From a virus (taxonomy: Duplodnaviria; Heunggongvirae; Uroviricota; Caudoviricetes): a stretch of DNA of 64,000 nucleotides. The stretch lies in the IMG/VR virus record IMGVR_UViG_3300006734_000990. The stretch is one strand, 5' to 3'. Both the position numbers and the translations under genes were made by a program. Within the stretch, counting starts at the first letter, position 1. Each line of letters starts with the position of its first letter. The notes beneath the pieces were generated by a model. That model saw nothing but the letters and a program-made list of their open reading frames with translations, searched no databases and had not been told where the DNA came from. Positions 5,662 through 56,093 of this stretch are shown here, in pieces.

Positions 5662-6546
5662 CTATGCTGTAAGAAACATCCCGCAGGATGCAGCCACATC
5701 CCGGCCGACGCGGGGAACAATCTTTGAGCCCATCAGGGGCATAGCTCCCCCAAGCACCCTCAGAGCTTGCGCGTAGCTTGCGTCGCTGGCCTCGCGGCCG
5801 GTTCTTTCGCTGAAGCTGTTATACCTGACAAGATTCAAGCGTGTTTTCAGGGTGGAATTTTCAAGGAAGTTCCGCAGCGCGACATGATCGCAAAGCCGAT
5901 CGTTCTCTCCTTCAATGAGCGCATGGTGAATAACCACATCCCGTCCCGTCGCGGCCTGCCAATCCTCCAGGCGTGCGAGGGTGGCGTCGGGTGCATCGGC
6001 CTTTGGCAGCCAACGTTTACGGAAGGAGGGCAGGAGGGAGTAGATTGACCAGTAGAAAGTGACCGGGTGGCCCGCGAAAGACTTCACGAGGTTCACATCG
6101 CGCGCGCCAATCGGGAAGATCGAGGAGACATTGATGCGGTAATCGATGCCCCGTTCCTCCGCTGCCGTGCGGATCGGCGCGATAAACCTGTCGAACTCGT
6201 TGCAAAAGTTAGGGTTAAGCAGAGGTTCACCGCGGGCCATCATATTGACGTTCATCCGCGTGACCGGTGCCTTCAGACTGTCGTAATGCTCGATCACCTG
6301 GGAAAACTGCGCGTGATAATCCTCAATCCGCGCCTGCCCCATTTGAACTTCCTTCAACTGGGTTAGATGGCAAAACCTGCAGGCTTGATTGCAACCTGTC
6401 TGGGAGGAGAGATAGGCGATAAAATACTCGGAACTGCGCTGAACGAAACGCGCTTCAAGAGCGCCACCATCTTCGTTTTTCGCAATGAAGTTTACCGAGG
6501 CATCGATCTCAGATGCACGTCTCTGCCACTCGTATGTCATATCCAT
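5662..6546 (-). CDS. RlmN/Cfr-family radical SAM RNA methyltransferase, compact form (about 295 aa; alternative start 6630)
   Basis: SSQTGCNQACRFC (CxxxCxxC), MMARGEPLLN (RlmN GMGEPL), C-terminal NLVRYNSF...RVGRDVAASCGMF matching RlmN NLIPWNPF...RGDDIDAACGQL with the second catalytic Cys; GGAG before ATG 6546; TGCGAAAAG box at 6554-6562. Confidence 0.65.
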   Translation of the reverse strand: MDMTYEWQRRASEIDASVNFIAKNEDGGALEARFVQRSSEYFIAYLSSQTGCNQACRFCHLTQLKEVQMGQARIEDYHAQFSQVIEHYDSLKAPVTRMNVNMMARGEPLLNPNFCNEFDRFIAPIRTAAEERGIDYRINVSSIFPIGARDVNLVKSFAGHPVTFYWSIYSLLPSFRKRWLPKADAPDATLARLEDWQAATGRDVVIHHALIEGENDRLCDHVALRNFLENSTLKTRLNLVRYNSFSERTGREASDASYAQALRVLGGAMPLMGSKIVPRVGRDVAASCGMFLTA

Positions 6547-6671
6547 CTCCTGCCACAGCTTACTTTTCGCAGCTATGCCAGAGAATTTCAGATTACAAAT
6601 GCCAGCCGGTGTCTGCGGCAGTGATCGCAAACATCCCGGACCATGGAAAATTAGTAGCGCGCAGACTTTCC

Positions 6672-19654: not shown

Positions 19655-20146
19655 CTAAAATTCAGGTGATCCACCCGGCTGGTCATGCGCTTCCAATGCG
19701 GTCAAGCGATCATAGGCAGCCTCGATCTCCTCGATCGGTGTCTCCATGGTCATGCCATGGTCCCGCGGCCGGACCCCGTAGGCCTCTTTATAATTGTCGG
19801 AATAAGACTGCAGCAGGAGAAGTTTCTCAAGCTCCTCTGGCGTGGTTACCCCATAGCGGTCCCAATGCTCCGGATCGTCTGTCAACTGCCCCATGAAGCA
19901 CCCTTCGATGGGGTTCTCTGCAAGCCAGATCGCCGTTGTATTGCCGAGGCGAACATAGTCCGCGATCGTCTCACACAGGCGCCAGTCTGGTCGGACGTCC
20001 GCAGCCATCATGAAGTTTTGCCGTGTGAGTTCCTCCCGCGCCAGCCGCACGGCCTCATCTGCATCGTCGGTCTCAATCACGCGGGACGGGCGCAGCACGC
20101 CATCCTCATCGTAGCCGTTTTCGTAGATGTGTACCTTGTGGGCCAT
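19655..20146 (-). CDS. hypothetical acidic protein (163 aa)
   Basis: ORF with coding bias. Confidence 0.45.
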   Translation of the reverse strand: MAHKVHIYENGYDEDGVLRPSRVIETDDADEAVRLAREELTRQNFMMAADVRPDWRLCETIADYVRLGNTTAIWLAENPIEGCFMGQLTDDPEHWDRYGVTTPEELEKLLLLQSYSDNYKEAYGVRPRDHGMTMETPIEEIEAAYDRLTALEAHDQPGGSPEF

Positions 20147-20230
20147 GTTGCTTCTCCTTTCATCTGCCAGGGAAACAATACGGTCGAGGAGCGAAAAGCC
20201 GCAGCGCTCTCGCGCCTCGACATGCTCTCT

Positions 20231-20878
20231 TCAGTTCCGTGCCAAGCCGACACTCTTCTCCAGTACCGGATTTTTGGTGAAATACTCCTCCCGGCCATGC
20301 ACGCCGCGGCCGACAATCCGGAAGAACTGGCGCGGCCCAGCCTTCGCTTGCGCGATCGGCTCATGCGGCGTGAAGATCCCGATCTCCAACACCTCACCGG
20401 CCGACATCATCCGACCCGTGGTGCGAGGAAACTCGGAGGCGCGCGCGGATAGATCGCCGTCGGGGGTCGTATCCTCTACATCCTCATCCCAGATCATGCA
20501 GGTCTCTGGGATCGAGTTGGCGATCAGAACGCGCGTGTCGCGCTCCAGCTCGACAAAGCCGGGCCCGTCGCCCCAGGTCGGTGTACCGGGGCCCCAGGTC
20601 AAAAGCCCCTCCCGCAGACAGGCTTCGGTATGAATGGTACGCTCTCCGGCGCCGTAGCCACGCTGTGAGGCGCCGGCCGCCACCATGCTCTCATCGATGG
20701 TGATCAGTCCAAGCTCACCTTCCTGGCCAGGCAGGGCGAAACGGGCCACGACGTCACCATACCCAGCATAGGCTTCCGGCAGGCTTTCCGGGCGGCCCTG
20801 GATGAAGGGCATCATGTAGCAACGCGCACCGGTGTAGGCGGGAAAGGCCATGTGGCCGGAGGACTTTACAGACATTGA
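20231..20878 (-). CDS. hypothetical protein (215 aa)
   Basis: Start chosen at MSVKSSGH; TCGCGAAAAAC box about 50 nt upstream (20925-20936). Confidence 0.45.
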   Translation of the reverse strand, partial: SMSVKSSGHMAFPAYTGARCYMMPFIQGRPESLPEAYAGYGDVVARFALPGQEGELGLITIDESMVAAGASQRGYGAGERTIHTEACLREGLLTWGPGTPTWGDGPGFVELERDTRVLIANSIPETCMIWDEDVEDTTPDGDLSARASEFPRTTGRMMSAGEVLEIGIFTPHEPIAQAKAGPRQFFRIVGRGVHGREEYFTKNPVLEKSVGLARN

Positions 20879-20994
20879 GGTACCCTTGTGATTGAATTTA
20901 GAACAGCATAACACATCGCGAAAAACGAGAGTATCAGAAATAAAGAGAGCGCCAGTTTCCCGGCGCCCCAATGTTTTTGAAGAACAGTTCAGCC

Positions 20995-21945
20995 TTACTT
21001 GGTTTTGGCTGTCGGGGTAGTCTTGCGGGGCGTTGCTTTTGCCGGGGCTTTCACCTGCTGACCTGCAGCGATCATGCCCATGGTTGCGGCATCTTTGGTT
21101 TCCTTGGCCGCAGCCGTCACGAAGACCACACTGCCACCCGCGGATGCAGCATCGCGCAGCGCTTCCATCTCATTGATCGAGGTGAAGAAGTCGAGGCCGG
21201 CGCTGGCCGACAGACCTGTGCTGCCCACGAAGGCCTGCAGAGCTTCAGCGTTGCCTTCGGCAACCTTCTTGCGGAAGGACGCATAGGCTTCGGCCTTGAT
21301 GTTCATGGCTTCGCCTTCCGCGTGCGATTTCGCAATTGAAAGTGTTTTCGCAGCTTCACCTTCGTTGATCGCCGCTTCTTTGAGGCGCTCAGATGCAATG
21401 ACGCGGTCGAAGGCCTGACGGAGTTCTTCTGAGGGCTGCGGATCATCGACGAGCACGTTCTCAATCCGAAAGCCGAAGCCGGACATCTTTTCGGTCAGAG
21501 TGCCTTCGACACCATCTTCAAAGGTATCGCGCGCCTGAAAGAGCTGATTGAACGACAGGCTCGAGGCTGTGGAACGTACCTGGTTGACGACGTAGGAGCG
21601 GATCTGGCCTTCAGGGTTGTTCAGCTTATAAAAGGCGTCCTGCGCTGTGTCTTCGTCGACGCAGAACTGGACGCGGATCGGCACCAACACGAAGGCATTG
21701 TCGGAGGACTTCACATTAACGTCCTCGGAGATCTCACGGATCTTCAACGAAAAGTTTGGCGATGCAGCCTGGAACGGCCAAGGCGCTTTGAACGACAAGC
21801 CAGACTTTCTAACCGAGGAGAACCTGCCGAAGGTGGAGATGATCTTGACGTGTTGTTGCTGCGTGATGACCACGGTTGATGCGGCCATCAATAGAAGTAC
21901 GACAGTGGCGATGGCGATATGGACCGCGGTGAGTGTGATAAACAT
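20995..21945 (-). CDS. SPFH / Band 7 (stomatin-prohibitin) family membrane protein
   Basis: N-terminal TM helix then ISTFGRF...KAPWPF... typical SPFH core, Ala/Glu-rich C-terminal helices. Confidence 0.7.
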   Translation of the reverse strand: MFITLTAVHIAIATVVLLLMAASTVVITQQQHVKIISTFGRFSSVRKSGLSFKAPWPFQAASPNFSLKIREISEDVNVKSSDNAFVLVPIRVQFCVDEDTAQDAFYKLNNPEGQIRSYVVNQVRSTASSLSFNQLFQARDTFEDGVEGTLTEKMSGFGFRIENVLVDDPQPSEELRQAFDRVIASERLKEAAINEGEAAKTLSIAKSHAEGEAMNIKAEAYASFRKKVAEGNAEALQAFVGSTGLSASAGLDFFTSINEMEALRDAASAGGSVVFVTAAAKETKDAATMGMIAAGQQVKAPAKATPRKTTPTAKTK

Positions 21946-22017
21946 GAGTTAAACCTTTTGCATTGGATTTGTGTCTTGCGGCTCAAGTAGGAGCCGGGTT
22001 TTTTCATTACAAATCCA

Positions 22018-22030
22018 TTTTTCGCAAAAG
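22018..22030 (+). promoter_or_regulatory. TTTTTCGCAAAAG box between SPFH gene and thrS-like gene
   Basis: Direct reading. Confidence 0.35.
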
Positions 22031-22049
22031 TGTTTTCTCACCATCGCAA

Positions 22050-23297
22050 TCACGGGGGCGCATCATGCGCCTCCGAGATTACCGCTACGAGGTCCTCAAT
22101 CGAGACCGAACGCTCTTTGCCGTTCATCTTCAGCATCACCTCGCCGCGCTCGACCTCACGCTTGCCGATTACCATCTGCACCGGGATCAGCTTATCCCGC
22201 ACCATGACAATCCGGCGGCCAAGCCCCTCAGACTGGTCAAAGAGGGCAGGGCGCAGCCCTGCGGCGCGCAGCTGGTCCATGACCGCCACCGCAGCATCGC
22301 GCTGGTCATGCCCGATCGGCAGCACAGCGACCTGTACCGGTGCCAGCCAGAGGGGCAGGCGGCCTTCGCAATGCTCCAGCAGGATGCCGATGAAGCGTCC
22401 GAGCGAGCCAAGCACCGCGTGGTGCAGCATCACGGGCTGATGTTTGGCGCCGTCTTTCCCCACATAGGAAGCGTCCAGGCGGCCTGGCAGGACCATGTCG
22501 AGCTGAATGGTGCCGCACTGCCACGAACGGCCCTTCTTGTCGCGCAAGGCGAACTCCAGCTTCGGACCGTAGAATGCGCCTTCGCCGAGCTGCAGCTTTG
22601 GGTCGAGCCCACAGGAGAGCGCCGCTTCCAGCAATTCCTGCTCTGCATGATCCCAATCCGCATCATTGCCGGCGCGCTTTTCTGGACGCAGCGACAGCGC
22701 CACTTCGAAGTCCGTAAACCCCAGAGCAGCATAGACCTCCTTCAGCAGTTCAACGAAGCGCGCGACTTCGCCACGGACCTGATCGGGATCGCAGATCACA
22801 TGGGCATCGTCCTGCTCAAATGCCTTGGTGCGCATCAGCCCATGCATGGAGCCCGATGCCTCATCGCGGTGGCACTGGCCAAACTCGGCAATGCGCATCG
22901 GCAGATCACGCCAGGAGCGCAGGTCCGAATTGAAGATCTGCAAATGACAGGGGCAACTCATCGGCTTCAGCGCCATATCGCGGCCGCCTTCCTCACGCGC
23001 CGGCACGGCGAACATGTTGTCGCCGAACTTCTCCCAATGGCCCGACGCTTCCCAGAGGGACTGGGGCAGCAGCTGCGGCGAGCGCACCTCGCCGTAGCCC
23101 AGGCTGCGCATGCGGTTACGGATGTAGTCCTCGAGCTCGCGGTAGATCTGCCAGCCAGCGGCGTGCCAGTAGATCATGCCCGGCGCATCTTCCTCGATGT
23201 GGTAGAGATCGAGACGGCGTGCCAGCACACGATGATCCAGAGGATCCATGCCTTGTTCGCGGGAGATGTCGAGGTTCTGTGCGTTGTTCTTATTCAT
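22050..23297 (-). CDS. threonyl-tRNA synthetase-like protein, catalytic plus anticodon-binding domains only (N-terminal TGS/editing domains absent), 416 aa
   Basis: DHRVLARRLDLYHIEEDAPGMIYWHAAGWQIYRELE ... matches E. coli ThrRS from about residue 240 ([26 protein letters not shown]...); class II motifs and C-terminal ABD present; AAGGA before ATG 23297. Confidence 0.8.
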   Translation of the reverse strand: MNKNNAQNLDISREQGMDPLDHRVLARRLDLYHIEEDAPGMIYWHAAGWQIYRELEDYIRNRMRSLGYGEVRSPQLLPQSLWEASGHWEKFGDNMFAVPAREEGGRDMALKPMSCPCHLQIFNSDLRSWRDLPMRIAEFGQCHRDEASGSMHGLMRTKAFEQDDAHVICDPDQVRGEVARFVELLKEVYAALGFTDFEVALSLRPEKRAGNDADWDHAEQELLEAALSCGLDPKLQLGEGAFYGPKLEFALRDKKGRSWQCGTIQLDMVLPGRLDASYVGKDGAKHQPVMLHHAVLGSLGRFIGILLEHCEGRLPLWLAPVQVAVLPIGHDQRDAAVAVMDQLRAAGLRPALFDQSEGLGRRIVMVRDKLIPVQMVIGKREVERGEVMLKMNGKERSVSIEDLVAVISEAHDAPP

Positions 23298-23345
23298 CGT
23301 CTTGGTCCTTTGTGGGGTATCAAATTGGACGCGAGACAATAAAAA

Positions 23346-23373
23346 ACCCCGCGTCAGTGGCGGGGTTCAAAGT
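23346..23373 (-). terminator. CCCCGC-CACTGAC-GCGGGG followed by UUUUUU hairpin-terminator 45 nt upstream of thrS-like start (leader attenuator-like)
   Basis: Read on minus strand; perfect 6-bp GC stem with U6. Confidence 0.6.
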
Positions 23374-23479
23374 CTGTTATGTTGATCCGATCAACTCACA
23401 CGACAACGCTCCGCCCGGGATGGGTGGTTGTTGTCGTCGTGGTGGAGGCGATCATGTTCATCATGCCGTCATACATAGG

Positions 23480-23569
23480 ATGCGAAAAACCCGTGGTCAA
23501 TATAATATCACTCCGTATTTTCGTGTTTTCCGAGGATCATGGCGTCAACCGATCAGGAGTATGACATGA
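23480..23569 (+). other. uORF (29 codons, MRKTRGQYN...) starting with ATGCGAAAAAC box; its TGA overlaps main-gene ATG (ATGA)
   Basis: Direct reading. Confidence 0.4.
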
Positions 23570-24075
23570 AAAACCCATTCCGCAGCAAAACCACCCGCAT
23601 CCGAGAGATAATGGCCGAGCTCGATACTTTCCAAGGTCAGATCGAGGGCCTCCTTGACGTCAGTCAGCATATTGGCGTCGAAAAAGTCACTGGTCCGATC
23701 GATGTTAAAACCCTTTCGGAAATCAAATCCGCGATCGAGTCCCAGCATTCCTACCTTAGCATGAAAGACGTCCGCGGGATCTCGGAGACATCCGATGAAT
23801 CCCATGCCGGTGTTGAACGTCGCTTCGCAGCCCGGGATGAAATTGTTTCCGGCGTTAAAGAAGAGATCGGAAAAACCAAAGGAATTCGCGGTGTTTTCGG
23901 CATGCACAGGAAGAACGTCGGGCAGTCCATCGCTGAACGCGCGATCTTGGCCATTGAGAAGGCCTGCGGCTATACTGACCTTAAATGCGCGCCTCTGAGT
24001 GTCAGCGATCCCTTCGGTCGGCCCAAGATCTCCGCTGAACATACCAAACCCGACTACTGCACGCCGGGCTGGTGA
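23566..24075 (+). CDS. hypothetical protein (169 aa)
   Basis: AGGAG 5 nt before ATG 23566; first of three co-directional genes. Confidence 0.45.
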   Translation: MKNPFRSKTTRIREIMAELDTFQGQIEGLLDVSQHIGVEKVTGPIDVKTLSEIKSAIESQHSYLSMKDVRGISETSDESHAGVERRFAARDEIVSGVKEEIGKTKGIRGVFGMHRKNVGQSIAERAILAIEKACGYTDLKCAPLSVSDPFGRPKISAEHTKPDYCTPGW

Positions 24076-24081
24076 TCTGAT

Positions 24082-24690
24082 ATGACCGACAGACTGATCA
24101 CCAAAGCCTTCTTCGACCCGATCTTTGAACATGAGCACGCCTATGATCGCACCTTCGGCGTCTACCTGCACCGCTGCGCCCGCGAAGAGCTCATCGTGAA
24201 AGCGATGCAGCGTGCGCGCAACGCCGGGAAGCTGGCCAAGTTCGAAGGGCTCGAAGGACGCCGCTTCGAAGAGGCCGAAGCCTGGAATGCTTTGGCAGAG
24301 GGGCGCGATCCTGAAGGTAAGATCGAAATGTATCTAACGTCGGCCATCTTGCTGGAGAAAATCGACACGATCGTCGGTGAGGCTTTCAGCAAGTTCTCCA
24401 ATACGAACGGCGAAGACATCCACGACAAGGTAGGCTTTCACAAATCTCTCTCGGCAATAGCCCTCAAGATCGAGAAATGGCTCGAACACCCAAAACAGTA
24501 TCAGAAAGACCATATGTTGCCACGCGGCACGAGTTTCGGGGACTTCGACAAACGTGAGATCAGCTACCTGGTTCGGCTCAACGGCTGGGACAGCATTGCA
24601 CTGATGGAGAAGGGTCTGCGCGAAGACTGGCGGCCTGTCGAAACTCCGCCCGAAGAAACATGCGATGCTGACGACGATATGGAGCCCTGA
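24082..24690 (+). CDS. hypothetical protein (202 aa)
   Basis: ORF, coding bias. Confidence 0.5.
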   Translation: MTDRLITKAFFDPIFEHEHAYDRTFGVYLHRCAREELIVKAMQRARNAGKLAKFEGLEGRRFEEAEAWNALAEGRDPEGKIEMYLTSAILLEKIDTIVGEAFSKFSNTNGEDIHDKVGFHKSLSAIALKIEKWLEHPKQYQKDHMLPRGTSFGDFDKREISYLVRLNGWDSIALMEKGLREDWRPVETPPEETCDADDDMEP

Positions 24691-24694
24691 AATA

Positions 24695-25363
24695 ATGCAA
24701 CTTTCCAAGAAACACTATTCGCCTGGCAAACGTACGCTGGATGACTTCGCGGACACGGTCATCTGCAAGTCCACATCCAGCGGCAGGGCGGTTCTCGATA
24801 CCGGATTCTACGATACGGTTTCTGATCCGGACTTTTCACCGAGTGGCCATGGCGCTGATTTCGAGACTGCCGCGAAAAACTGCGGCACGCGGATCCGTGA
24901 AGCTGCCCAGGATGGAAAACGGTATGGCTGCCTGCATGGATATGACCTGCAGTATCGCCTGATGTATCACTGGGACCGCAAAGAGAAGTTCGTCGAGCTT
25001 GGCTTGGACCCTAACGAGGTCATGAAGGACTGCAACGACAGCTATGGTCAATGGCCCCTCGGGGCCAGCTGGCTTCAGAACGTCAAAGGCGCGCGCCACG
25101 CGGAGTTCTTCTTCAAGCTGCTGGTCGCCACCGGCCAGAAAGGCATTGAGGAAGGGGCCTACGACCGTTCGAGCGTCATCGATGCGATTATGGTCGAGCT
25201 TGCCGATGAATTCCCGCAGATCGGCCCGTCGATCCATTATCCGGGCATCCCTCGGCCGCGGAGCGAGACCGAGCTTCGGGACATTGTGCTGGAGCGCTTA
25301 CATGAGATCTTTGATGCGCCCGACATGTCTCTCGATGAGGACACTGAGATGACGGGGCCTTAA
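24695..25363 (+). CDS. hypothetical protein (222 aa)
   Basis: GGAG 10 nt before ATG 24695. Confidence 0.5.
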   Translation: MQLSKKHYSPGKRTLDDFADTVICKSTSSGRAVLDTGFYDTVSDPDFSPSGHGADFETAAKNCGTRIREAAQDGKRYGCLHGYDLQYRLMYHWDRKEKFVELGLDPNEVMKDCNDSYGQWPLGASWLQNVKGARHAEFFFKLLVATGQKGIEEGAYDRSSVIDAIMVELADEFPQIGPSIHYPGIPRPRSETELRDIVLERLHEIFDAPDMSLDEDTEMTGP

Positions 25364-25402
25364 ATCAGGTGAACATGTGACCCCGCCCGGATTGCGTCGA
25401 AT

Positions 25403-26395
25403 TCAGCTAGAAAACGGCGGCAGATAAGGTGCTAACTCCGAAATAGGGAAGTTGTAGGCCCGATCTTCACCTTCCTCACCTTTGGCACCAGCTTTTACAT
25501 AGGCCGAAAATGCCTTGCGCAGGGCGGCTTTGTCGCCCGCATCGACTGTCATCCCTTCAATGCTTTCAACCTCATAGGCAGGATGGAAGATGCTGCCATC
25601 CTTTTCAAAATCCGAGAACTCATCTGCATTGCGCCGAAGGACCGTGCCCCGCGCAATACCGCCGCGCGCAGGCCAGTCGAATGAGACAAGATAGGCGGAT
25701 CGGGCGGCTTTCGCCATGCTCTCCCAGTCCCAATACACGGAAAAGGTCGGGCCGTACATTTCCTGGGCTTGTTGGTCTGCCGTATCGAGAACCTCCAGTT
25801 CATCCGGGTCGGTCATCGTGTCGAAGACCACCATTCTTACATTGAGCGCATCCAGCTCTTCAGGCGCGCTGCGCAGGACGTCGATCAAGCCTCGATCGCC
25901 TTTGCGCGCAGCTACCACTGCATTGCCACGCTGTCGATTGGCCCAAGCGGCTGCGGCTGCTGTCAGGTTATCCTCTGTAATGGGATCTGAAGCTTTCCAG
26001 TAACCTTTGAACATCTTTGCAATTTCGGGCCGAGCCTTGCCGTAGACGGCATTTGCCTCTTTCCAATGCGCGGCACCGCCTTCCGCGCCGAGACCATTGG
26101 CCGACATGTTCGACGAGCCCACAAAGGACATGTCTCCGATCACGCCAATCTTTGCATGAAGATCGTTAAGCTGGCGTACCTCAGCACCGCCCGCCTGGAG
26201 CTTGCTGATCTCATTGGGGTTGGTACCCCCACTCATAAGGTTGCAGACAATCCTCATCTTGGTTTTGTCTTGCTTGCCGAGCGCTTCAGCAGCGCCGGCG
26301 CCCCAAAATGCTACGGCAAGATCGGCGTTTGCCGTGTTTTTAAGTTCAGCGCGCATACGTTGCAGCAACGCAGCTCCATCAAGGAATTTGGGCAT
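25403..26395 (-). CDS. phospholipase D-like (single HKD motif) domain protein, putative Nuc-like nuclease
   Basis: LHAKIGVIGDMSFVGSSNMSANG is a complete HxKxxxxD(x6)GSxN motif; one copy only. Confidence 0.7.
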   Translation of the reverse strand: MPKFLDGAALLQRMRAELKNTANADLAVAFWGAGAAEALGKQDKTKMRIVCNLMSGGTNPNEISKLQAGGAEVRQLNDLHAKIGVIGDMSFVGSSNMSANGLGAEGGAAHWKEANAVYGKARPEIAKMFKGYWKASDPITEDNLTAAAAAWANRQRGNAVVAARKGDRGLIDVLRSAPEELDALNVRMVVFDTMTDPDELEVLDTADQQAQEMYGPTFSVYWDWESMAKAARSAYLVSFDWPARGGIARGTVLRRNADEFSDFEKDGSIFHPAYEVESIEGMTVDAGDKAALRKAFSAYVKAGAKGEEGEDRAYNFPISELAPYLPPFSS

Positions 26396-26527
26396 AAATG
26401 ACCTTTTTGAAAATCGAGGGTGTCTAAAAATAAGTTCAAGGCCCCTTATGGGGGCTCAATATGGATGCAGCGTAGGCCACAACTAAAAATGGGTCAAACA
26501 GCCAATGTATTACACGAGCATCGCGAA

Positions 26528-27202: not shown

Positions 27203-27407
27203 CGGTATAGGCTCCATGGGGATCCACACCGGTGGCCATCGCGAAATTGAACTCCGCCGGGGAGAGCAGGGTGCTGCCCGAGAGATCCGCTTCGCGTTCG
27301 ATCTCGGCTTCGACCATGGCTTTGACATGCTCCTCGCGGCTGGCTTCGCTGCGCGCCTGCAGGTCCTGCTTCATGTCCTGGAAGGCTTTTGATTTGGAAA
27401 AGCTCAT
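27180..27407 (-). CDS. putative antitoxin (75 aa) overlapping toxin start
   Basis: Position and size only; no clear RHH signature. Confidence 0.4.
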   Translation of the reverse strand: MSFSKSKAFQDMKQDLQARSEASREEHVKAMVEAEIEREADLSGSTLLSPAEFNFAMATGVDPHGAYTDEREEDQ

Positions 27408-27472
27408 CGCTCATATCCCCTGTGATCTTTCTATCCATATTATGTGTGCCTTAACCTTCTTCAAGACAAGAT

Positions 27473-27484
27473 ATGCGAATTTAG
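27473..27484 (+). other. mini-ORF MRI* (ATGCGAATTTAG)
   Basis: Direct reading. Confidence 0.2.
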
Positions 27485-30676: not shown

Positions 30677-30891
30677 ATCACTGTTTTTTCGCATTGCCTT
30701 TCTGAAACGGATTTCCTAACATCCCCGCATGACACAGGATAAACCCATCTGCGCGATCAATTGGTGGCTGCCTCTCTGAGGCGGCCCAATTCCTGTGACC
30801 AACCCCAGGACCGGCCGCGTGATGCGGCTTGTGATGTCCTGAAAGACCCCTCCCATCATGCGGCTGTCCTCTCTCCATAAAGGACAAGACC

Positions 30892-32028
30892 ATGCAAGAT
30901 CTCTCTACCCTCGAAGGCAAGACCATCCTCACCGGCGACCGGCCCACAGGTCCGCTCCATCTCGGCCATCTGGCCGGGACCCTTCAGGCGCGCGTCGCCC
31001 TGCAGGACAAGAACGACGTGACCATTCTGGTGGCTGATATGCAGGCCCTGACGGATAACGCCGGGCGCGCTGCGGATGTGGCCGCCAATGTGCGCGAGGT
31101 GGTACTCGATTATATCGCGGCCGGCATCGATCCAGACCGGGTCACCATCGTGCGCCAGTCCGAACTGCCAGCCCTCAATGAGCTCACCATGCTCTATATG
31201 AACCTGATCACCGTCCCGCGGCTCATGCGCATCCCGACAATCCGTGAGGAGATCGCCCAGCGCGGCTTTGGCGATGGTACCCCGGCGGGCTTTCTCTGCT
31301 ACCCGGTTAGCCAGGCGGCCGACATCACAGCCTTTGGCGCTGATATCGTGCCCGCGGGCGCCGATCAGGCACCGCTTGTCGAGATCACCGGTGAGATCGC
31401 GGGCAAGGTGAACCGCATGGCAGGGCGCAACTTGCTGGTCACCCCGACCTTGATGCAGTCCAATGCACCGCGGCTGCCGGGCATCGACGGGGCCGGCAAG
31501 ATGTCCAAATCCGCCGGCAATGCGATCGCGCTGCGCGATGGACCAGATGAGATCCGCGCGGCCGTCATGCGGATGTTCACTGATCCTGGCCATCTGAAGG
31601 TCTCTGACCCCGGCAAGGTGGAGGGTAATGTGGTCTTTGCTATGCTCGACGCCTTTGATCCGGATGCCGCAGCTGTAGAGGATCTCGAATCCCAGTACCG
31701 CGCCGGCGGGCTCGGAGACATGGTCCTGAAGCGTCGTTTGGACGGAATCTTGCAGGAGCTGCTGGCGCCGATGCGTGCGCGGCGCGCGGAGCTCGCCTCC
31801 GATGCAGGCTTGGTAGACCATATCCTCGAGGAGGGCCGTAAGCGCGCCCATGTGACCACCATGGAGACCTTGGGGGATGTGCGGCGCGCCTTTGGGTTGG
31901 AAGGGCGCCCAGGGCGCTCTGCGGCACTCACAGAGCTTGTGAGCTTGGGAGAGGACTGCGAGGCGGGAAAGGTCCACGAGGGGCTCGTGGACGCCATTTC
32001 TGCGTCACATACGCGCTTCTCTGCCTGA
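30892..32028 (+). CDS. trpS: tryptophanyl-tRNA synthetase (about 40-aa C-terminal extension relative to compact bacterial TrpRS)
   Basis: HIGH-type PTGPLHLGHLAG, TrpRS hallmark ILVADMQALT (VDxHAIT region), GKMSKSAGNAI KMSKS loop; co-linear with Bacillus TrpRS throughout. Confidence 0.8.
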   Translation: MQDLSTLEGKTILTGDRPTGPLHLGHLAGTLQARVALQDKNDVTILVADMQALTDNAGRAADVAANVREVVLDYIAAGIDPDRVTIVRQSELPALNELTMLYMNLITVPRLMRIPTIREEIAQRGFGDGTPAGFLCYPVSQAADITAFGADIVPAGADQAPLVEITGEIAGKVNRMAGRNLLVTPTLMQSNAPRLPGIDGAGKMSKSAGNAIALRDGPDEIRAAVMRMFTDPGHLKVSDPGKVEGNVVFAMLDAFDPDAAAVEDLESQYRAGGLGDMVLKRRLDGILQELLAPMRARRAELASDAGLVDHILEEGRKRAHVTTMETLGDVRRAFGLEGRPGRSAALTELVSLGEDCEAGKVHEGLVDAISASHTRFSA

Positions 32029-34617: not shown

Positions 34618-34992
34618 ATGGACAAGCGTAAGATCAACGACACACTCCCTGACCAGGTGATGTCTCGGTTGTCGGTGTTCGGGTCTGATATTTCCGCCGC
34701 GCGGCGTGCGCGCAACATCAGCCAAGCTGATCTGGCGGATCGGATCAACGTCGCGCGCCGCACGGTTGTCAGGATGGAGCAGGGTGACGCGCGTGTCAGT
34801 TTCAGCGCCTATGTCTCCGTCGCCTGGGTGTTTGGCTTGGAGGGTAGGCTCTTTGATGCCTTCAGCTCGGAGACAGACCCGGTACAAATTCGCGAAGCGC
34901 GTTTGAACATCCCACGGCGCATCGATGCACCTCGCGGTGCCAGGCACACTGCTGAGACAGTCTCGGCCGACGACAAAGGATTGGATTTCTAA
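34618..34992 (+). CDS. hipB: HipB-like XRE-family HTH antitoxin
   Basis: ISQADLADRINVARRTVVRMEQG helix-turn-helix; TAATG overlap with hipA. Confidence 0.7.
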   Translation: MDKRKINDTLPDQVMSRLSVFGSDISAARRARNISQADLADRINVARRTVVRMEQGDARVSFSAYVSVAWVFGLEGRLFDAFSSETDPVQIREARLNIPRRIDAPRGARHTAETVSADDKGLDF

Positions 34993-36326
34993 TGGAACAC
35001 AAGGCTATCGTATTTCTCGAACTGCATGGCGAAACTGTTCCTGTGGGACGACTGGTAATTACAGAAGACGGGCGTTATTCGCGCTCGGATTTCGACTACG
35101 GCCGCAAGTACCTCGAGCGCCCGGACGCCGTGGCGATCGACCCCGTTCAGATGCCGCTGGGAAAAGAACACCTGCGCACCCATGAGGACTTCACCCTCTT
35201 CAACGGGATCCGGGATGCAGCGCCTGACGCCTGGGGCCGCAAGCTCATCGATCTTTACATGAAGCGCACCGAGGGGCGGGCCGCTTCCGAGGCCGAGTAT
35301 CTGCTGGTCTCCCAGCGCGGGACCCGGATCGGTGGCGTTCAGTTCGGCCCCACCACGGAAGGGCCTGGCCAGATCCTCGATGTGGGCCTACCCGATGTCT
35401 CCTCTGACCTCGGCACGCTCGAAGCCTTCCAAGAGATGGTCGACACCTTCAAAGCCGGCCGTCATGTGCCGGACCACCTGCTTGATCACGTCTCCCCCGG
35501 TGCAGATCTCGGTGGTGCGCGCCCCAAGGGCACGGTGACGATCAATGATCACCCCTGGCTGGCCAAATTCGGCATCGAGAGCGACAGCATCACTATGGCC
35601 GCGGCCGAGGCTGGCTGCCTGGATCTCTGTGAGATGGCAGGACTGTCGGTTTGCGAGCGCGACATCATCGATGTGGCAGGCCGCCCGACCTTACTGTTGA
35701 AACGCTTTGACCGTGAACCCGATGAGAGCGGCAAGCTCCACCGCAGGCATATGATCTCCGGCCTGACCTTGCTGGGCGCCCATGAGATGGACCGGGCCGC
35801 TTCGGGATATGCAGATCTTTATGATGGCATGCGCCGCTTCGGCGCGGCAGACGATGCCGGAGAGACGATCTACCGGCGCATGGTGATGAATGTCCTGTGC
35901 GGCAATACAGATGATCATTACCGCAACCATGCCTTCCTGCTCAATGATGAGGGGCTCTATGTGCCAAGCCCGGTTTATGACGTCACGCCCTCCACTGGCT
36001 TCTCGACCAGCCGCAGCCTCTTCATGCATCTGGGTAAGGCCGGCTGCGGCCGGGATGCGACGCTGGAGAATGCGGTGGCGGGTGCTGCGAGCCTCGGTGT
36101 GTCCCAGGCGCGCGCGACAGAAATCGCTAATGATCTGAGCCATATGGTGGGTAAGAGTTGGCGCCGCGTTCTGTCGGACCGCGGGGCGACGGAAGCGGAC
36201 CTTGAGACGTTGGAGACGAGCTTCTCGGAAGCTGGCCGGTCTGTAGGTCTGGACCACAGCGCAGTGTTCAATCCTTTCGACACTCCGACGCATGACCGCA
36301 AGGGTCCCGCTTTGCCAAATCCGTAA
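34992..36326 (+). CDS. hipA: HipA-family serine/threonine kinase toxin
   Basis: 444 aa; catalytic-loop motif NTDDHYRNHAFLL (HipA N.DDH.KN.S), N-terminal HipA_N-like region; operon with HTH gene. Confidence 0.8.
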   Translation: MEHKAIVFLELHGETVPVGRLVITEDGRYSRSDFDYGRKYLERPDAVAIDPVQMPLGKEHLRTHEDFTLFNGIRDAAPDAWGRKLIDLYMKRTEGRAASEAEYLLVSQRGTRIGGVQFGPTTEGPGQILDVGLPDVSSDLGTLEAFQEMVDTFKAGRHVPDHLLDHVSPGADLGGARPKGTVTINDHPWLAKFGIESDSITMAAAEAGCLDLCEMAGLSVCERDIIDVAGRPTLLLKRFDREPDESGKLHRRHMISGLTLLGAHEMDRAASGYADLYDGMRRFGAADDAGETIYRRMVMNVLCGNTDDHYRNHAFLLNDEGLYVPSPVYDVTPSTGFSTSRSLFMHLGKAGCGRDATLENAVAGAASLGVSQARATEIANDLSHMVGKSWRRVLSDRGATEADLETLETSFSEAGRSVGLDHSAVFNPFDTPTHDRKGPALPNP

Positions 36327-51400: not shown

Positions 51401-51943
51401 ATGAGCAAATGCCCTACCTGCGGTGCAGTATCTTCTGAAGAGAACCAGGCCCCACAAAACAGCGAAGCCGAAATCGTTCTGCGCATCCCCGAGCGGCACT
51501 TCCCGCTCATGCGCAAGACCTTTCGCGAGATGGAAGTGAAGTTGGGTATGCACGGGCTTGGCGAGCTGGCAAATACGCTCAAACCCTATGGGGCCTTATT
51601 TGACAAAGACTTCGACAAGCTGCGCTATTTCAATGATGGCGCATTGGGAATGGTGATGCATGGGATCACGGCCGGCTATCCGGCCGCGGTTCGGATTGCT
51701 GAAGGAAACGACAAGCTCTTCGCTTCCCACGAGCGCGGTAAACGCGTTGCGGTTCATGTCGACTTCACCTTCCCTGACGGTCAGGTCAAACACATGGCGG
51801 TTGCGGAAAGCGCGACGCCTGAGGCGGCCGCCTGGTTCACCGATTACATCAATGATCTCTGCGACAGGCTTTCGCCGCAAAACCCCCAGGGAAACTCAGA
51901 TCAAAGATCGGATATCCAGGAGAACAATGATGCGGGGTTCTGA
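51401..51943 (+). CDS. hypothetical protein with N-terminal CPxCG zinc ribbon (180 aa)
   Basis: KCPTCGA; overlaps next gene start. Confidence 0.5.
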   Translation: MSKCPTCGAVSSEENQAPQNSEAEIVLRIPERHFPLMRKTFREMEVKLGMHGLGELANTLKPYGALFDKDFDKLRYFNDGALGMVMHGITAGYPAAVRIAEGNDKLFASHERGKRVAVHVDFTFPDGQVKHMAVAESATPEAAAWFTDYINDLCDRLSPQNPQGNSDQRSDIQENNDAGF

Positions 51944-53207
51944 AAAGAAAGCCTTTGGCGTTGTCGGCGCCGGCTGGGGCGATGAGGGCAAGGGGCTCGC
52001 CACAGACGCGCTGACAGCACATTTGATGGGGCAGGGGCGCCAAGTTACTGTTGTGCGCTCCAATGGCGGCGCACAGGCGGGCCATGGGGTCACGATGGAT
52101 GACGGTCGCCACCATGTTTTCCACCACATCGGCTCCGGATCATTCCGGGGTGCAGCCACCCATCTGTCGCGCTTTTTCGTCTCCCACCCGATGGTCTTCT
52201 TCTCAGAGCTGGAGGAGCTCGCGCGCAAAGGCGTCCATGACCTGCAGATCACGGCCGATCCGCGCTCTGTGATCACCACACCTTGGGACATGGCAATCAA
52301 TCAGGCGGCAGAGATCGCCAGAGGCGCAGGTAAGCATGGCTCCTGCGGATTGGGTTTCGGGGAGGCACTGGAGCGTCATGAGAAAGGGTCTCAACTCACA
52401 ATGCAGGACCTCTTCTCACCAGGACTGATGTCTCGGCTGGAACAGATTGCCTCGGTTTGGGTGCCTGCGCGACTGGCAGCCTTGGGGCTCACAGATATCC
52501 CGGTTCACTTGAGACCTGTACTGAACAATGCATCAGGGTTCGTCGGCCGGTTTGCAAAAGACCTGCAGAAATATAGCGCGGTCGTCTCTCTCATGTCCGA
52601 TGAAGCCCTGGGAGATTGCGATGCGGTGGTTTTTGAGGGCGCTCAGGGTTTGCAGCTTGATATGGACCTTGGGGTATTTCCCCATGTGACGCGGTCTTAC
52701 ACCGGCGCAAAGAACATGGTCGAGATCGCCCGCGACGCCGGGATCACGGATCTCGAGGTCATCTACATGACCCGCGCCTATGCCACGCGGCACGGGGCAG
52801 GGCCCTTCCCGCTCGATCGAGGCACGACGCCCCTGCCAGGCACCCATGTCATTGATCGGACCAACAGACCAAATGAGTGGCAGGACGCCATCCGCTACGC
52901 GCCTTTGGACCTTAGAGAGTTGGACCGCATCATCTCGGCTGATCTCGCGCGCAGCTGCGGTCAGGGCGTAAACATCGATCATGGTTTGGGTGTTACCTGC
53001 CTGGACCAGCTGGGCGACAAGGTTTTGATGTCTGTGATGGATATGGGGGATGGGCCCTATGTATCGGAGGTCGACACCGAGAACCTCGCGGATGTCATCT
53101 CCGGGCTTTCAGGTCACCCTCTCAAACTCAAATCAGAAGGCCCCTGTGCCGAGAAGGTCGATCTGTCGCTTCTCGCACCTGTTCCTCATGAAGAGCCCTG
53201 TCCCTGA
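51927..53207 (+). CDS. adenylosuccinate synthetase family protein, divergent (PurA/PurZ-like), 426 aa
   Basis: GAGWGDEGKG (PurA P-loop GxQWGDEGKGK), GGAQAGHG, VVFEGAQGLQLDMDLGVFPHVTRSYT (PurA [22 protein letters not shown]), YATRHGAGPFPLD (YSTRVGAGPFP); PurA GATTGRRRR loop replaced. Confidence 0.7.
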   Translation: MMRGSEKKAFGVVGAGWGDEGKGLATDALTAHLMGQGRQVTVVRSNGGAQAGHGVTMDDGRHHVFHHIGSGSFRGAATHLSRFFVSHPMVFFSELEELARKGVHDLQITADPRSVITTPWDMAINQAAEIARGAGKHGSCGLGFGEALERHEKGSQLTMQDLFSPGLMSRLEQIASVWVPARLAALGLTDIPVHLRPVLNNASGFVGRFAKDLQKYSAVVSLMSDEALGDCDAVVFEGAQGLQLDMDLGVFPHVTRSYTGAKNMVEIARDAGITDLEVIYMTRAYATRHGAGPFPLDRGTTPLPGTHVIDRTNRPNEWQDAIRYAPLDLRELDRIISADLARSCGQGVNIDHGLGVTCLDQLGDKVLMSVMDMGDGPYVSEVDTENLADVISGLSGHPLKLKSEGPCAEKVDLSLLAPVPHEEPCP

Positions 53208-54693: not shown

Positions 54694-54769
54694 GTCTCCT
54701 TAGTTCACCCGGTTAGAACAGCAGCCTTTCAAGCAGCAGAAACGAGTTCGAGACTCGTAGGAGATGCCA
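54694..54769 (+). tRNA. tRNA-Glu (anticodon UUC)-like, 76 nt, encoded CCA, G1-U72 wobble and an A-A mismatch in anticodon stem
   Basis: Manual fold: acceptor GTCTCCT/AGGAGAT, D-arm GTTC-ACCCGGTTA-GAAC (G18G19), anticodon loop CTTTCAA, 4-nt variable loop, T-arm ACGAG-TTCGAGA-CTCGT. Confidence 0.65.
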
Positions 54770-54782
54770 AAATCACCACCAC

Positions 54783-54858
54783 GTCCGCATAGTTCAATTG
54801 GTTAGAATAGTGCCCTCTCAAGGCACAGACGCGAGTTCAATCCTCGCTGCGGATGCCA
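54783..54858 (+). tRNA. tRNA-Glu (anticodon CUC), 76 nt, encoded CCA, G1-U72 wobble
   Basis: Manual fold: acceptor GTCCGCA/TGCGGAT, D-arm GTTC-AATTGGTTA-GAAT, anticodon stem GTGCC/GGCAC loop CTCTCAA, 4-nt variable, T-arm GCGAG-TTCAATC-CTCGC. Confidence 0.7.
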
Positions 54859-54874
54859 AATTCAGGAGACCAAG

Positions 54875-55225
54875 ATGTTGTCACTGTCGCGCTTTTTTAA
54901 ACGTCGCCCCAAGGCACCTGAGCTGCCTCGCTTTCCAGACCGGGCCGAGGCGGCTGCATGGATGCGCAGCAAGATTGTTCAGACGCGACAGAGGTCACCT
55001 CACGAGGCCCAGCGCCTCTTTGATCCGACATCCGGAGATTACCTGCCCGCATCCGTCCATACAGGATCGTATTTCGATGAAGACGCTCTAGTGGCATATC
55101 GAGCCCTCAAAGCCGAGTTCCCAGATCTTGTTGCGGCCTCATTCAATGAGCCAATGGCATTCTGCGTCTCGCGCATCGCGGACCCGGAAGATCTTCATGC
55201 TCATGCACATCGAATTGGCGTCTGA
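54875..55225 (+). CDS. hypothetical protein (116 aa)
   Basis: ORF between tRNAs and GluRS-like gene. Confidence 0.4.
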   Translation: MLSLSRFFKRRPKAPELPRFPDRAEAAAWMRSKIVQTRQRSPHEAQRLFDPTSGDYLPASVHTGSYFDEDALVAYRALKAEFPDLVAASFNEPMAFCVSRIADPEDLHAHAHRIGV

Positions 55226-55238
55226 AAGGATTTTCACA

Positions 55239-56093
55239 ATGACCTACACAACCCGAGTAGCCCCGTCTCCAACTGGCGACTTTCACATCGGCACAGCCCG
55301 CACCGCCTATTTCAACTGGCTCGCCGCGCGCGCCTCTGGCGGTCGCTTCCTCCTGCGCATCGATGACACCGATCTCGCGCGCAACAACGATGCCTCGATC
55401 AGCGTGATCCATGATTGCCTCGATTGGTTGGGGCTTACGCCTGACGCCGTCTACCGTCAGTCGCACCGGCGCGACATCTATGATGCCGCGGCTACAAAGC
55501 TTCTTGATGCAGGGCTGGCAGTCCGTGCCGACAATGGTGCTGTGCTGATGAAGGGTGGGGCAGCCGCGCCGTGGCACGATCTGATTTCCGGCGACCAGCT
55601 GCCCAGCTCCAAGGCGCATGACCTGGCGCGCGATCAGGTGCTCATCAAAGCTGACGGTATGCCGGTCTATCATTTCGCCTCAGTGGTCGACGATATCGAT
55701 CTGCGCGTGAACCTGGTGATCCGGGGCATGGACCATGTGACCAACACTTTCCGTCATGCGGGGATCTACGCTGCCCTCGGTGCGCCAATGCCGGATTTTG
55801 CCCATGTCGGCCTGATCACCATGGGTGGCAAGAAGATGTCCAAACGCGACGCCGCGGCAAGCCTTCTGGGGTACCGCGATGACGGTGTCGATCCCGATGC
55901 CATGCTGAACTATCTGCTGCGCGTCGGCTGGGGCCCGCGCCAGGATGACAAGTCGATGAAGATCATCGATCGGGCTCGGGCGGTTGATCTGTTTCTGGAT
56001 CACGGCAAGATGCGGTCCTCGCCGGCCGCGATGGATCTGGCAAAACTTGCCAGCTTCGATCGGAAGTACAAGCACATGAAACGGCCTGCATAG
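55239..56093 (+). CDS. glutamyl-tRNA synthetase catalytic domain protein lacking the anticodon-binding domain (GluQRS-like architecture, GluRS-like sequence), 284 aa
   Basis: APSPTGDFHIGTARTA (HIGH), VYHFASVVDDIDLRVNLVIRGMDH, GKKMSKRD (KMSKS), LNYLLRVGW - co-linear with E. coli GltX residues 1 to about 300; stops shortly after. Confidence 0.75.
   Translation: MTYTTRVAPSPTGDFHIGTARTAYFNWLAARASGGRFLLRIDDTDLARNNDASISVIHDCLDWLGLTPDAVYRQSHRRDIYDAAATKLLDAGLAVRADNGAVLMKGGAAAPWHDLISGDQLPSSKAHDLARDQVLIKADGMPVYHFASVVDDIDLRVNLVIRGMDHVTNTFRHAGIYAALGAPMPDFAHVGLITMGGKKMSKRDAAASLLGYRDDGVDPDAMLNYLLRVGWGPRQDDKSMKIIDRARAVDLFLDHGKMRSSPAAMDLAKLASFDRKYKHMKRPA

Follow-up and report, generated by a model that had tools for sequence, protein, structure and literature searches.

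The window analysed here, a stretch of 64,000 nucleotides (nt) from a tailed-phage (Caudoviricetes) record of IMG/VR (IMGVR_UViG_3300006734_000990), carries on its minus strand a threonyl-tRNA synthetase (ThrRS) gene, thrS, whose product lacks both N-terminal domains, N1 (TGS) and N2 (editing). Upstream of the gene lie a short leader open reading frame (ORF) with seven consecutive threonine (Thr) codons and a GC-rich hairpin followed by U6. We consider it likely that this is an accessory, mobile, editing-less thrS placed under a ribosome-mediated transcription attenuator which reads the supply of Thr-tRNA(Thr). The decisive feature, the Thr-codon leader peptide on the coding strand, had been missed in an earlier sequence-only reading of the same DNA.

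A ThrRS without Editing Domains

The minus-strand ORF at 22050..23339 is listed with a TTG start at 23339. This is an unlikely start because it is sited within the terminator tail, and the likely start of the gene is ATG 23297. The protein matches Pfam families tRNA-synt_2b (PF00587, 8.8e-46) and HGTP_anticodon (PF03129, 3.4e-12, residues 336-423), and the Pfam scan returned neither TGS nor tRNA_SAD, which bears out the proposal of the sequence-only reading that these domains are missing. The NCBIfam model thrS (TIGR00418) gives a score of 440.8 against a cutoff of 383.65, the match spanning only model positions 163-561 of 565. In a comparison with solved structures, the protein aligns to residues 230-616 of E. 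coli ThrRS (1qf6), and its DHR..LDLYH segment corresponds to residue 243 onward, in agreement with the N-terminal boundary proposed earlier near residue 240. The zinc ligands C334, H385, and H511 (E. coli numbering) are kept, as are R363, E365, M374, R375, F379, Q381, D383, Y462, G463, K465, L489, and R520. The catalytic residues are invariant over 25 members of the truncated family, among them C115, H166, H292, R144, and R301 of the window protein (E. coli C334, H385, H511, R363, and R520, respectively). The retained residues suggest that the gene encodes a catalytically competent ThrRS core, which would synthesize Thr-tRNA(Thr).

A frameshift that had left the N-terminal domains in an adjacent frame was the alternative raised at the outset. 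A tblastn search of all frames of the window revealed no N1 or N2 coding potential (the best E was 2.5, that of the positive control 3e-166), and the flanking ORFs scanned with Pfam (19655-29096) contain no TGS or tRNA_SAD match. The frameshift scenario is therefore excluded.

A protein search scored 8000 candidates. The best 120 of these relatives are about 366-448 residues long, nearly all of them 380-430, and are 53-91% identical to the window ThrRS; TGS and tRNA_SAD domains are absent from all of them, and PF00587 and PF03129 occur together in all except one. The named organisms among these 120 are Rhodobacterales (Pseudosulfitobacter, Paracoccus, Cereibacter sphaeroides, Roseivivax, Epibacterium, and Mesobaculum). 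Remoter truncated members, with 53-59% identity, come from other Alphaproteobacteria, the conjugative Burkholderia plasmid pM7012 (402 residues), and a Caballeronia replicon. In a neighbour-joining tree of the shared region, the truncated proteins fall into one clade separate from 47 full-length ThrRS. Substitutions specific to this clade include N333S and R512H, which adjoin the zinc ligands C334 and H511; the 47 full-length sequences all have R512. By these comparisons, the truncated ThrRS of ~390-415 residues are a single clade, which occurs in both Alpha- and Betaproteobacteria and is often encoded on plasmids or integrative elements. The gene copies often lie beside integrases, on plasmids, or in gene-poor islands of 'hypothetical' genes, and some lie in ordinary chromosomal neighbourhoods.

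Pattern scans of genomes and metagenomes returned mostly full-length thrS with at most 59% identity. Classification by ORF length is affected at three of the related loci (designated here by L numbers): thrS of L094 starts at GTG, and L139 and L164 are cut by contig ends. A Legionella 'plasmid' thrS was rejected as a family member, being part of the ordinary thrS-infC-rpmI-rplT-pheS cluster. Near-identical DNA of the window locus was not found in plasmids, nor were close relatives of the truncated ThrRS found on IMG/VR viral contigs.

The neighbours of the truncated genes in relatives are often RNA- or translation-related or mobile. In C. sphaeroides (L084, 7112-7762), a gene for HD_4 (RelA/SpoT-type hydrolase) stands directly 5' of thrS. 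NUDIX, NAMPT, CHAP, and CCA-adding-enzyme-like PolyA_pol proteins are encoded nearby in Paracoccus litorisediminis (L088, 698-7715), SmpB and RNase H in Epibacterium (L173, 913-2898), and a phage-type integrase at L175 (4260-5429). Plasmid p3 of Thioclava sp. (L182, 2501-2890) carries an unannotated fragment of ~130 residues, 72% identical to the window ThrRS and with no leader match, which is probably a decayed copy of the family.

The Thr-Codon Leader and Its Terminator

The run of seven ACN codons in the leader ORF occurs once in the 64-kb window, and none of 100 shuffles contains one. In an alignment of leaders, conservation within the Thr block has a period of 3: the first two bases, A and C, never vary and the third is free, a signature of selection on codons rather than on an RNA motif. 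Coupled upstream ORFs (uORFs) had earlier been placed on the plus strand (23379..23564); both the strand and the content were mistaken, as these frames are antisense to the minus-strand leader ORF 23464..23396.

A putative promoter precedes the leader ORF, whose ATG 23464 lies 7 nt past the putative -10 box; a further in-frame ATG at 23476 overlaps that box. The pattern TTGAC-N17-TAnnnn is present in 17 of 21 leaders. Since the leader ATG sits 6-9 nt after the -10 box in these, the leader ORF is suggested to be leaderless, that is, translated without a 5' untranslated region (UTR). The spacer of the window promoter contains a TTTTTCGCA box. The sequence-only reading had assigned such a box, given as ATGCGAAAAAC, to the uORFs. 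The motif itself is real, with 17 sites of TTTTTCGCA in the window against 0.72 expected (examples are 23481-23489 on the minus strand, 30685-30693 on the plus strand, 45678-45713 on the minus strand, and 60527-60724 on the plus strand), but it is a signal of the promoter region rather than a property of uORFs, because the sites are mostly intergenic (13 of them) and this one stands between the putative -35 and -10 boxes. The putative promoters of the ThrRS leader and of the leader of a tryptophanyl-tRNA synthetase (TrpRS) of the window each have it within or next to them, and it recurs near the thrS promoters of the Rhodobacterales relatives L081, L084, L086, L092, and L173. Probably, it is an operator or promoter element of the island described below or of its host.

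The GC hairpin with U6, which the earlier reading had already called attenuator-like, now has comparative backing as an intrinsic terminator. Its helix (23368..23344) has nine pairs and a 7-nt loop, the T6 tract lies at 23346-23341, and the distance to the thrS ATG is 43 nt. Over 17 leaders the helix is 95.6% paired, with compensatory AU to GC changes or the reverse at two outer pairs (12 cells), a level that none of 500 shuffles reaches. All leaders contain GGCGGG (GGGCGG in the window) two to four codons past the Thr run, complementary to CCCGCC of the terminator 5' arm; this GGCGGG:CCCGCC helix is 84.9% paired, as compared to at most 61% in slid controls.

The association of this leader with truncated genes is close. 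The 10 truncated loci obtained from the genome scan all have a Thr run in an ORF of 25-27 codons upstream of thrS, and a GC hairpin and a U-run follow this ORF. When genome, metagenome, and targeted loci are pooled, at least five Thr codons within seven are seen upstream of 23 of 25 truncated genes vs. 2 of 133 full-length genes. The remaining two truncated genes are compatible with the pattern: L093 has TTTAT, and L143, cut by the contig end, has the terminator. A table of 21 leaders gives ORFs of 22-28 codons with 4-9 Thr. Nine closer relatives all have the leader, for instance MDKMRALFVTTTTTTRSRWLVRI in C. sphaeroides and MSMKQNTTTTTTTTHSGGSVVV in Pseudosulfitobacter.

A covariance model was built from 15 relatives, the window and its near-twin L081 being left out. 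It matches the window end to end at 23335..23445 (-) with 73.9 bits and E 3e-18, and it also finds leaders on which it was not trained: L094 (69 bits), Caballeronia (71), Burkholderia pM7012 (59), and, in part, L143. Applied to 160 loci gathered regardless of leaders, the model matches 13 of 14 truncated genes (the basal L101 is missed) vs. 1 of 146 full-length genes. The restriction of the leader to truncated genes is not absolute: the full-length L159 (243-367) has a leader of the same family (60 bits), and a plasmid-borne full-length thrS of Qipengyuania citrea (L177, 2112-2211) has a weaker one, MTPMRITTTTTTTPGNRGWSVAA, with 31 bits. In a rumen metagenome-assembled genome (L050, about 300-420), a full-length thrS follows a different, AT-rich Thr leader, MFVYSLITTTFTTTTP. 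The housekeeping thrS loci of P. litorisediminis and Legionella do not match the leader model, and no Rfam family reaches its gathering threshold on seven related loci or at the window site. Judged from the loci compared, the leader and terminator are near-obligately paired with truncated thrS and rare upstream of full-length thrS.

These data bear on a view that we regard as effectively refuted, namely, that thrS is what remains of a pseudogene truncated at its 5' end, with the hairpin doing no more than terminating an upstream transcription unit. Hairpin-U runs are not unusual around the locus (3 vs. 1.2 expected in 1.8 kb), and one decayed fragment of the gene does exist, on the Thioclava plasmid. 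Against this, the same N-terminal boundary recurs in more than 100 proteins, which form a monophyletic clade with invariant catalytic residues, and the GC content at third codon positions of the window gene is 0.76. There is no upstream gene on the same strand, since the neighbour is divergent, and the leader and terminator are conserved together with thrS.

A further conserved element, referred to as segment 5, is located about 35-45 nt before the thrS ATG. Its partner varies by clade, being GACGCG:CGCGTC in one and CGGACGGG:CCCGTCCG in the other. Compared with shuffles, the duplex energies in 16 leaders, which are not phylogenetically independent, give a Fisher p of 1.7e-9 (0.26 for a 5' arm control). 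Segment 5 cannot affect termination because it is transcribed after the U-tract. Control of the accessibility of the ribosome-binding site (RBS) was considered and rejected, a simple model showing no systematic effect (0.37 vs. 0.41, p 0.18). In the L088/L092/L173 subgroup, the element downstream apparently pairs with the inner part of the terminator 5' arm instead. In the full-length 5' UTR of the window (23297..23346 on the minus strand), the U-tract and the next bases are predicted to pair with the Shine-Dalgarno sequence and AUG (probability of being unpaired 0.11) in either terminator state, a pairing that is not consistent in relatives.

Folding Tests and the Proposed Mechanism

As equilibrium folding was uninformative, the terminator always winning, a nascent-RNA test was employed: the RNA ending just before the terminator 3' arm was folded, and capture of the 5' arm by upstream sequence was scored. 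For the window, the modelled capture probability rises from 0.03 in ribosome-free RNA to 0.74 when Thr codons 1-5 are occupied by a ribosome, and it is 0.07 when the ribosome stands at the stop codon; the means for 21 loci are 0.18, 0.84, and 0.43, respectively. In the window model, capture of the 5' arm by GGGCGG requires a ribosome positioned on the Thr codons. When the intervening sequence was dinucleotide-shuffled, 1 of 200 shuffles equalled the window switch and 2 of 200 that of L090; for L004, 1 of 200 equalled the difference between the stalled and free states. In the minimum free energy (MFE) and centroid structures of the free RNA, the Thr codons pair with GUUGUCGUG, and that element is thereby sequestered.

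In the mechanism that we favour, transcription would start at the putative promoter TTGACC-N17-TATGTA, and the 22-codon leader would be translated at once, probably without a 5' UTR. If Thr-tRNA(Thr) is plentiful, the ribosome would reach the stop codon and cover GGGCGG; if there is no translation, the Thr-codon stretch would pair with GUUGUCGUG. In either case, the CCCCGC/GCGGGG-U6 terminator would form and transcription would end before thrS. If Thr-tRNA(Thr) is scarce, owing to Thr starvation or to a failing or inhibited housekeeping ThrRS, the ribosome would stall on the seven Thr codons. GGGCGG and the sequence following it would then be free to capture the terminator 5' arm before the 3' arm is made, and the polymerase would read through into thrS. 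The extra ThrRS may raise the capacity for tRNA(Thr) charging. Since it lacks N2, the enzyme is predicted to produce a certain amount of Ser-tRNA(Thr) as well, and the host would need either to tolerate this product or to clear it in trans through its full-length ThrRS; such trans-editing, shown for the apo-T1 of Anabaena, is a plausible remedy for mischarging.

Several observations weigh against this scheme. A strict scan for sigma-70 consensus promoters gives no site at the leader promoter, and the leader ORF has no Shine-Dalgarno sequence. The terminator prevails in all ribosome states when equilibrium folding is done with ribosome masks, and hence antitermination must be kinetic. In the nascent-RNA model, leaders of the L004 type do not return to termination when the ribosome stands at the stop codon. 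The antiterminator core of the window comprises 5 bp only; moreover, both strands of the antiterminator helix are invariant, so that it shows no covariation and is supported by conservation. The conserved segment 5 is unaccounted for by the attenuation model. The co-occurrence of truncated and full-length thrS has been demonstrated at the species level only. Finally, the induction of an editing-less ThrRS during Thr starvation, when the ratio of Ser to Thr is high, looks risky for fidelity.

Table 1. Coordinates of the thrS locus and of other features of the window.
Feature	Position	Strand	Details
Truncated ThrRS gene	22050..23297	-	415 residues; class II catalytic core and anticodon-binding domain; without N1 (TGS) and N2 (editing)
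Shine-Dalgarno-like AAGGA	23306..23310	-	8 nt before ATG 23297; read from sequence
Segment 5, CGCGTC	23328..23333	-	complementary to GACGCG (23355-23350) in terminator loop and 3' arm
Intrinsic terminator	23341..23368	-	stem GAACCCCGC/GCGGGGTTT, loop CACTGAC, then U6
Small hairpin GTTGATC-G-GATCAAC	23381..23395	-	between leader stop codon and terminator
Leader ORF MMNMIASTTTTTTTHPGRSVVV	23396..23464	-	22 codons; stop codon 23398-23396; read from sequence
GTTGTCGTG	23399..23407	-	pairs with Thr-codon stretch ACGACGACAAC (23440-23430), the 1:2 'protector' helix, in MFE, centroid, and nascent-RNA folds
Antiterminator element GGGCGG	23411..23416	-	predicted to pair with CCGCC of terminator 5' arm
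Seven Thr codons ACC ACG ACG ACA ACA ACC ACC	23423..23443	-	proposed sensing element of leader ORF
Putative promoter	23472..23500	-	TTGACC (23500-23495), 17-nt spacer, TATGTA (23477-23472); inferred from sequence
TTTTTCGCA box in promoter spacer	23481..23489	-	between putative -35 and -10 boxes
Radical-SAM gene	5662..6630	-	
Band_7/SPFH gene	20995..21945	-	follows thrS
Hairpin with T6	21979..21996	+	between Band_7/SPFH gene and thrS
Further TTTTTCGCA box	22018-22026		between Band_7/SPFH gene and thrS
Mini-ORF MTQDKPICAINWWLPL	30729..30779	+	tandem Trp codons
TrpRS gene	30892..32028	+	
HTH_3 gene	34618..34992	+	
HipA_C kinase gene	34992..36326	+	
Adenylosuccinate-synthetase-like gene	51660..53207	+	515 residues
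Two tandem tRNA-Glu genes	54694..54858	+	UUC and CUC anticodons
GluRS-like gene	55128..56093	+	321 residues; true start may be further upstream

Accessory Copy or Sole Enzyme

The sequence-only reading had called the gene an editing-less paralog. The lack of editing domains is supported; the evidence that the truncated gene is an accessory paralog is indirect. It comes from the frequent location on plasmids and integrative elements and from the assemblies of P. litorisediminis: one of them has a full-length thrS with TGS and SAD domains in a conserved chromosomal context, and another has the truncated thrS. An exact-sequence look-up for both genes in the same assembly placed the full-length gene only in another P. 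litorisediminis assembly.

It is very unlikely that the truncated ThrRS is the only ThrRS of its organism, in a lineage where editing either was lost, as happened in yeast mitochondria, or was transferred to a separate protein, the crenarchaeal arrangement. Natural editing-less ThrRS do exist, and the yeast mitochondrial (3ugq) and Aeropyrum (3a31) enzymes are among the structure matches. What argues against this possibility is that the genomic contexts are accessory and mobile and that the truncated gene is strain-specific in named species (P0008 and P0013 have one member sequence each, on 1-2 contigs). In addition to the full-length gene of P. litorisediminis, the Rhodobacterales loci L017, L019, L028, and L034 carry a normal thrS of about 650 codons, and neither the window nor the flanks of 23 truncated loci yielded a free-standing editing-domain homolog.

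The selective benefit of an accessory copy may be backup charging or resistance to ThrRS inhibitors, and the present data do not decide between them. In the latter case, the gene would chiefly be a mobile resistance or immunity determinant against an inhibitor of the borrelidin or obafluorin type, and the Thr leader would be a drug sensor inducing an insensitive copy, since an inhibited housekeeping enzyme leaves less Thr-tRNA(Thr). We consider this improbable; the sensing mechanism would be the same as in attenuation by Thr-tRNA(Thr) supply, and only the selective role would differ. Second copies of aminoacyl-tRNA synthetases (aaRS) represent a known immunity strategy, and ObaO gives transferable obafluorin resistance (bioRxiv 704981, PMC10619133), but ObaO is not described as truncated. 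Truncated thrS is frequently found on plasmids and integrative elements, yet some copies lie among ordinary chromosomal genes. The clade-specific N333S and R512H flank the zinc ligands C334 and H511, whereas L489 is unchanged and Y462 and G463 are kept; the change L489W is reported to confer borrelidin resistance in E. coli. The neighbours scanned encode Band_7, a weak PLD-like match, or no domain, and there is no biosynthetic cluster: domains of the nonribosomal peptide synthetase or polyketide synthase type are absent from the ~40 window ORFs scanned, about half of the total.

Comparison with Known Systems

The best Rfam match at the locus is Thr_leader (RF00506) with 22.7 bits and E 0.27. 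The gathering threshold is 55, so the window leader is not a member of this family by Rfam's test. It nevertheless resembles the leader of the E. coli thr operon (thrL) in having a leader ORF with Thr codons, alternative 1:2, 2:3, and 3:4 helices, and a GC hairpin with a U-run. E. coli thrL mixes Thr and Ile codons and precedes biosynthetic genes, whereas the regulatory codons of the window leader are Thr only and the gene under its proposed control is a synthetase; the extra fifth segment and the probably leaderless start also set the window leader apart. In E. coli pheM-pheST, a leader-peptide attenuator stands upstream of an aaRS gene. Vecchione and Sello reportedly described in 2010 an auxiliary antibiotic-resistant TrpRS of S. 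coelicolor under attenuation. In S. lividans, the leader peptides of thrL-thrS, trpL2-trpS, and leuL2-leuS are all leaderless, and alaL-alaS is a further aaRS leader-peptide attenuator (PMC8079986). In these systems, a cognate-codon leader peptide controls a synthetase gene, as is proposed for the window; a leaderless start is reported for the Streptomyces leaders and suggested for that of the window. S. lividans thrL contains two Thr codons only and no clear terminator (PMC8079986). By contrast, the leaders of truncated thrS have 5-9 Thr codons and a canonical terminator, belong to a family spread over Alpha- and Betaproteobacteria, and precede the gene of a domain-truncated enzyme.

ThrZ of B. 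subtilis, a full-length protein, is likewise the product of a second ThrRS gene induced as tRNA(Thr) charging falls. In that organism, thrZ and thrS are under T-box control (Putzer et al. 1992, as cited in PMC4787780). The T-box RNA binds uncharged tRNA directly, whereas in the window a translating ribosome would be the sensor. The T-box covariance model is not among the Rfam matches up to E 10 in 21800-24200.

As for the enzyme, the E. coli construct deltaN-ThrRS (residues 242-642; 1evk, 1evl, 1fyf, and 1kog) has the same domains and nearly the same boundary; DHR of the window protein corresponds to residue 2 of the 1evk chain, and about half of the aligned residues are identical by eye. Dock-Bregeon et al. 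are said to have found in 2000 that deltaN-ThrRS aminoacylates but mischarges Ser. Unlike this engineered form, the window ThrRS belongs to a natural, evolutionarily stable family with the signature substitutions N333S and R512H. Yeast mitochondrial MST1 (3ugq) and the crenarchaeal ThrRS-cat (3a31) are also composed of catalytic and anticodon-binding domains with no cis-editing domain, and in the structure comparison they give 243 and 168 bits, respectively, as compared to 407 for E. coli ThrRS. They differ in being the sole enzyme of a compartment or paired with a separate ThrRS-ed, and no such partner is seen near truncated thrS.

The Anabaena ThrRS T2 is a stress-induced duplicate with defective editing, the fidelity of which is rescued in trans by subunits of the housekeeping T1 (Rubio et al. 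2015, PMC4787780); the engineered T2-deltaN has null editing (PMC4787780). In contrast to the window ThrRS, T2 still has N1 and N2 (with an insertion), and what induces it is a limitation of zinc, not a Thr-codon leader. For ThrRS, a 2022 review of aaRS duplications gives only Anabaena T2 and eukaryotic ThrRS-L. Thus, the proposed mechanism is known in kind from the thr operon, pheST, and Streptomyces aaRS genes, while the family of truncated ThrRS and its pairing with the leader appear to be undescribed. No description of either was found in the literature searched, which excludes most subscription journals, so that this absence is no proof.

Other Features of the Window

The TrpRS gene of the window (TIGR00233 score 224.6 vs. 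a cutoff of 176.75) is a second accessory synthetase gene, preceded by a mini-ORF with tandem Trp codons (Table 1). Its Pseudosulfitobacter ortholog (L086, 90-1250 on the minus strand, upstream region 1250-1492) is 74% identical and has the mini-ORF MTQNKTYLSQAWWLP. Folding of the TrpRS leader shows strong structure (z -4.4). A segment just past the stop codon pairs with the WW codons, and a conserved long helix, GGCCGCGUGAUGCGG:CAUCAUGCGGC, stands beside the RBS, with no U-tract terminator. The third synthetase-like gene, and the second with a domain truncation, follows two tRNA-Glu genes. It encodes a glutamyl-tRNA synthetase (GluRS)-like protein with the catalytic domain only (tRNA-synt_1c, 3.6e-57), whose gltX_bact score of 252 bits is below the cutoff of 290 and whose match extends to model position 318 of 470.

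The HTH_3 protein and the HipA_C kinase (7.3e-39) make up a HipB/HipA-like pair. HipA-family kinases target GltX and TrpS, and both of these have extra copies or relatives in the window island. The adenylosuccinate-synthetase-like protein (Pfam 2.6e-45, phrog_1211 1.8e-56) scores well below the purA and PurZ cutoffs and has an N-terminal extension of about 100 residues. The radical-SAM protein, a distant relative of RlmN/Cfr rRNA methyltransferases (TIGR00048 1.3e-14, phrog_27142 3.5e-87), is translation-related cargo. The Band_7/SPFH gene lies after thrS on the same strand, a synteny kept in L081-L083. In the interval between the two, there are a further TTTTTCGCA box and a hairpin with T6 on the plus strand, though both genes are on the minus strand.

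The inventory of the island is what could speak for a non-translational role of the truncated ThrRS, namely, as a source of Thr-tRNA or Thr-AMP for a secondary pathway, as a regulator, or as a decoy for a toxin directed at synthetases: besides thrS, the island has the HipA-like kinase with its HTH partner, TrpRS, the catalytic-only GluRS-like protein, and two tRNA-Glu genes. We find such a role highly improbable. The residues that bind Thr, ATP, and zinc are all kept together with the anticodon-binding domain, and a Thr-codon sensor fits a role in tRNA(Thr) charging. To our knowledge, ThrRS is not a HipA target, and no PADLOC defence model matched the ThrRS, TrpRS, or GluRS-like proteins. T-box, defence-system, and biosynthetic-cluster readings of the locus found no support in the Rfam, PADLOC, and neighbour-domain scans.

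A broader proposal extends the attenuated accessory thrS to the whole region. The window may contain a mobile 'translation-rescue island' of spare or domain-minimized synthetases (ThrRS, TrpRS, and the GluRS-like protein beside two tRNA-Glu genes) with a HipBA-like pair, an idea that is speculative and on balance doubtful. If it is true, at least two of the island synthetases would each be wired to a leader peptide sensing the charging of its own tRNA. The editing-less ThrRS would have been selected for sustaining translation in Thr shortage or under synthetase attack, with Ser-for-Thr mistranslation being its cost or being exploited, and the conserved fifth RNA segment would add a second, post-transcriptional layer of control.

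Implications

As far as the searchable literature and Rfam show, three things are new: a natural, monophyletic, mobile family of bacterial ThrRS without N1 and N2, a family of Thr-leader attenuators, ~120 nt long and conserved in Alpha- and Betaproteobacteria, and the near-obligate association of the two. Databases label the truncated genes 'threonine--tRNA ligase', which masks the missing editing function. Proofreading by ThrRS is regarded as essential for the discrimination of Thr from Ser, and the truncated family has dispensed with it. The proposed sensor would turn an editing-less ThrRS on just when Thr-tRNA(Thr) is limiting. These data open the questions of whether conditional mistranslation is tolerated or exploited, whether a paralog can rely on trans-editing, and whether mobile spare synthetases may serve as resistance or stress modules.

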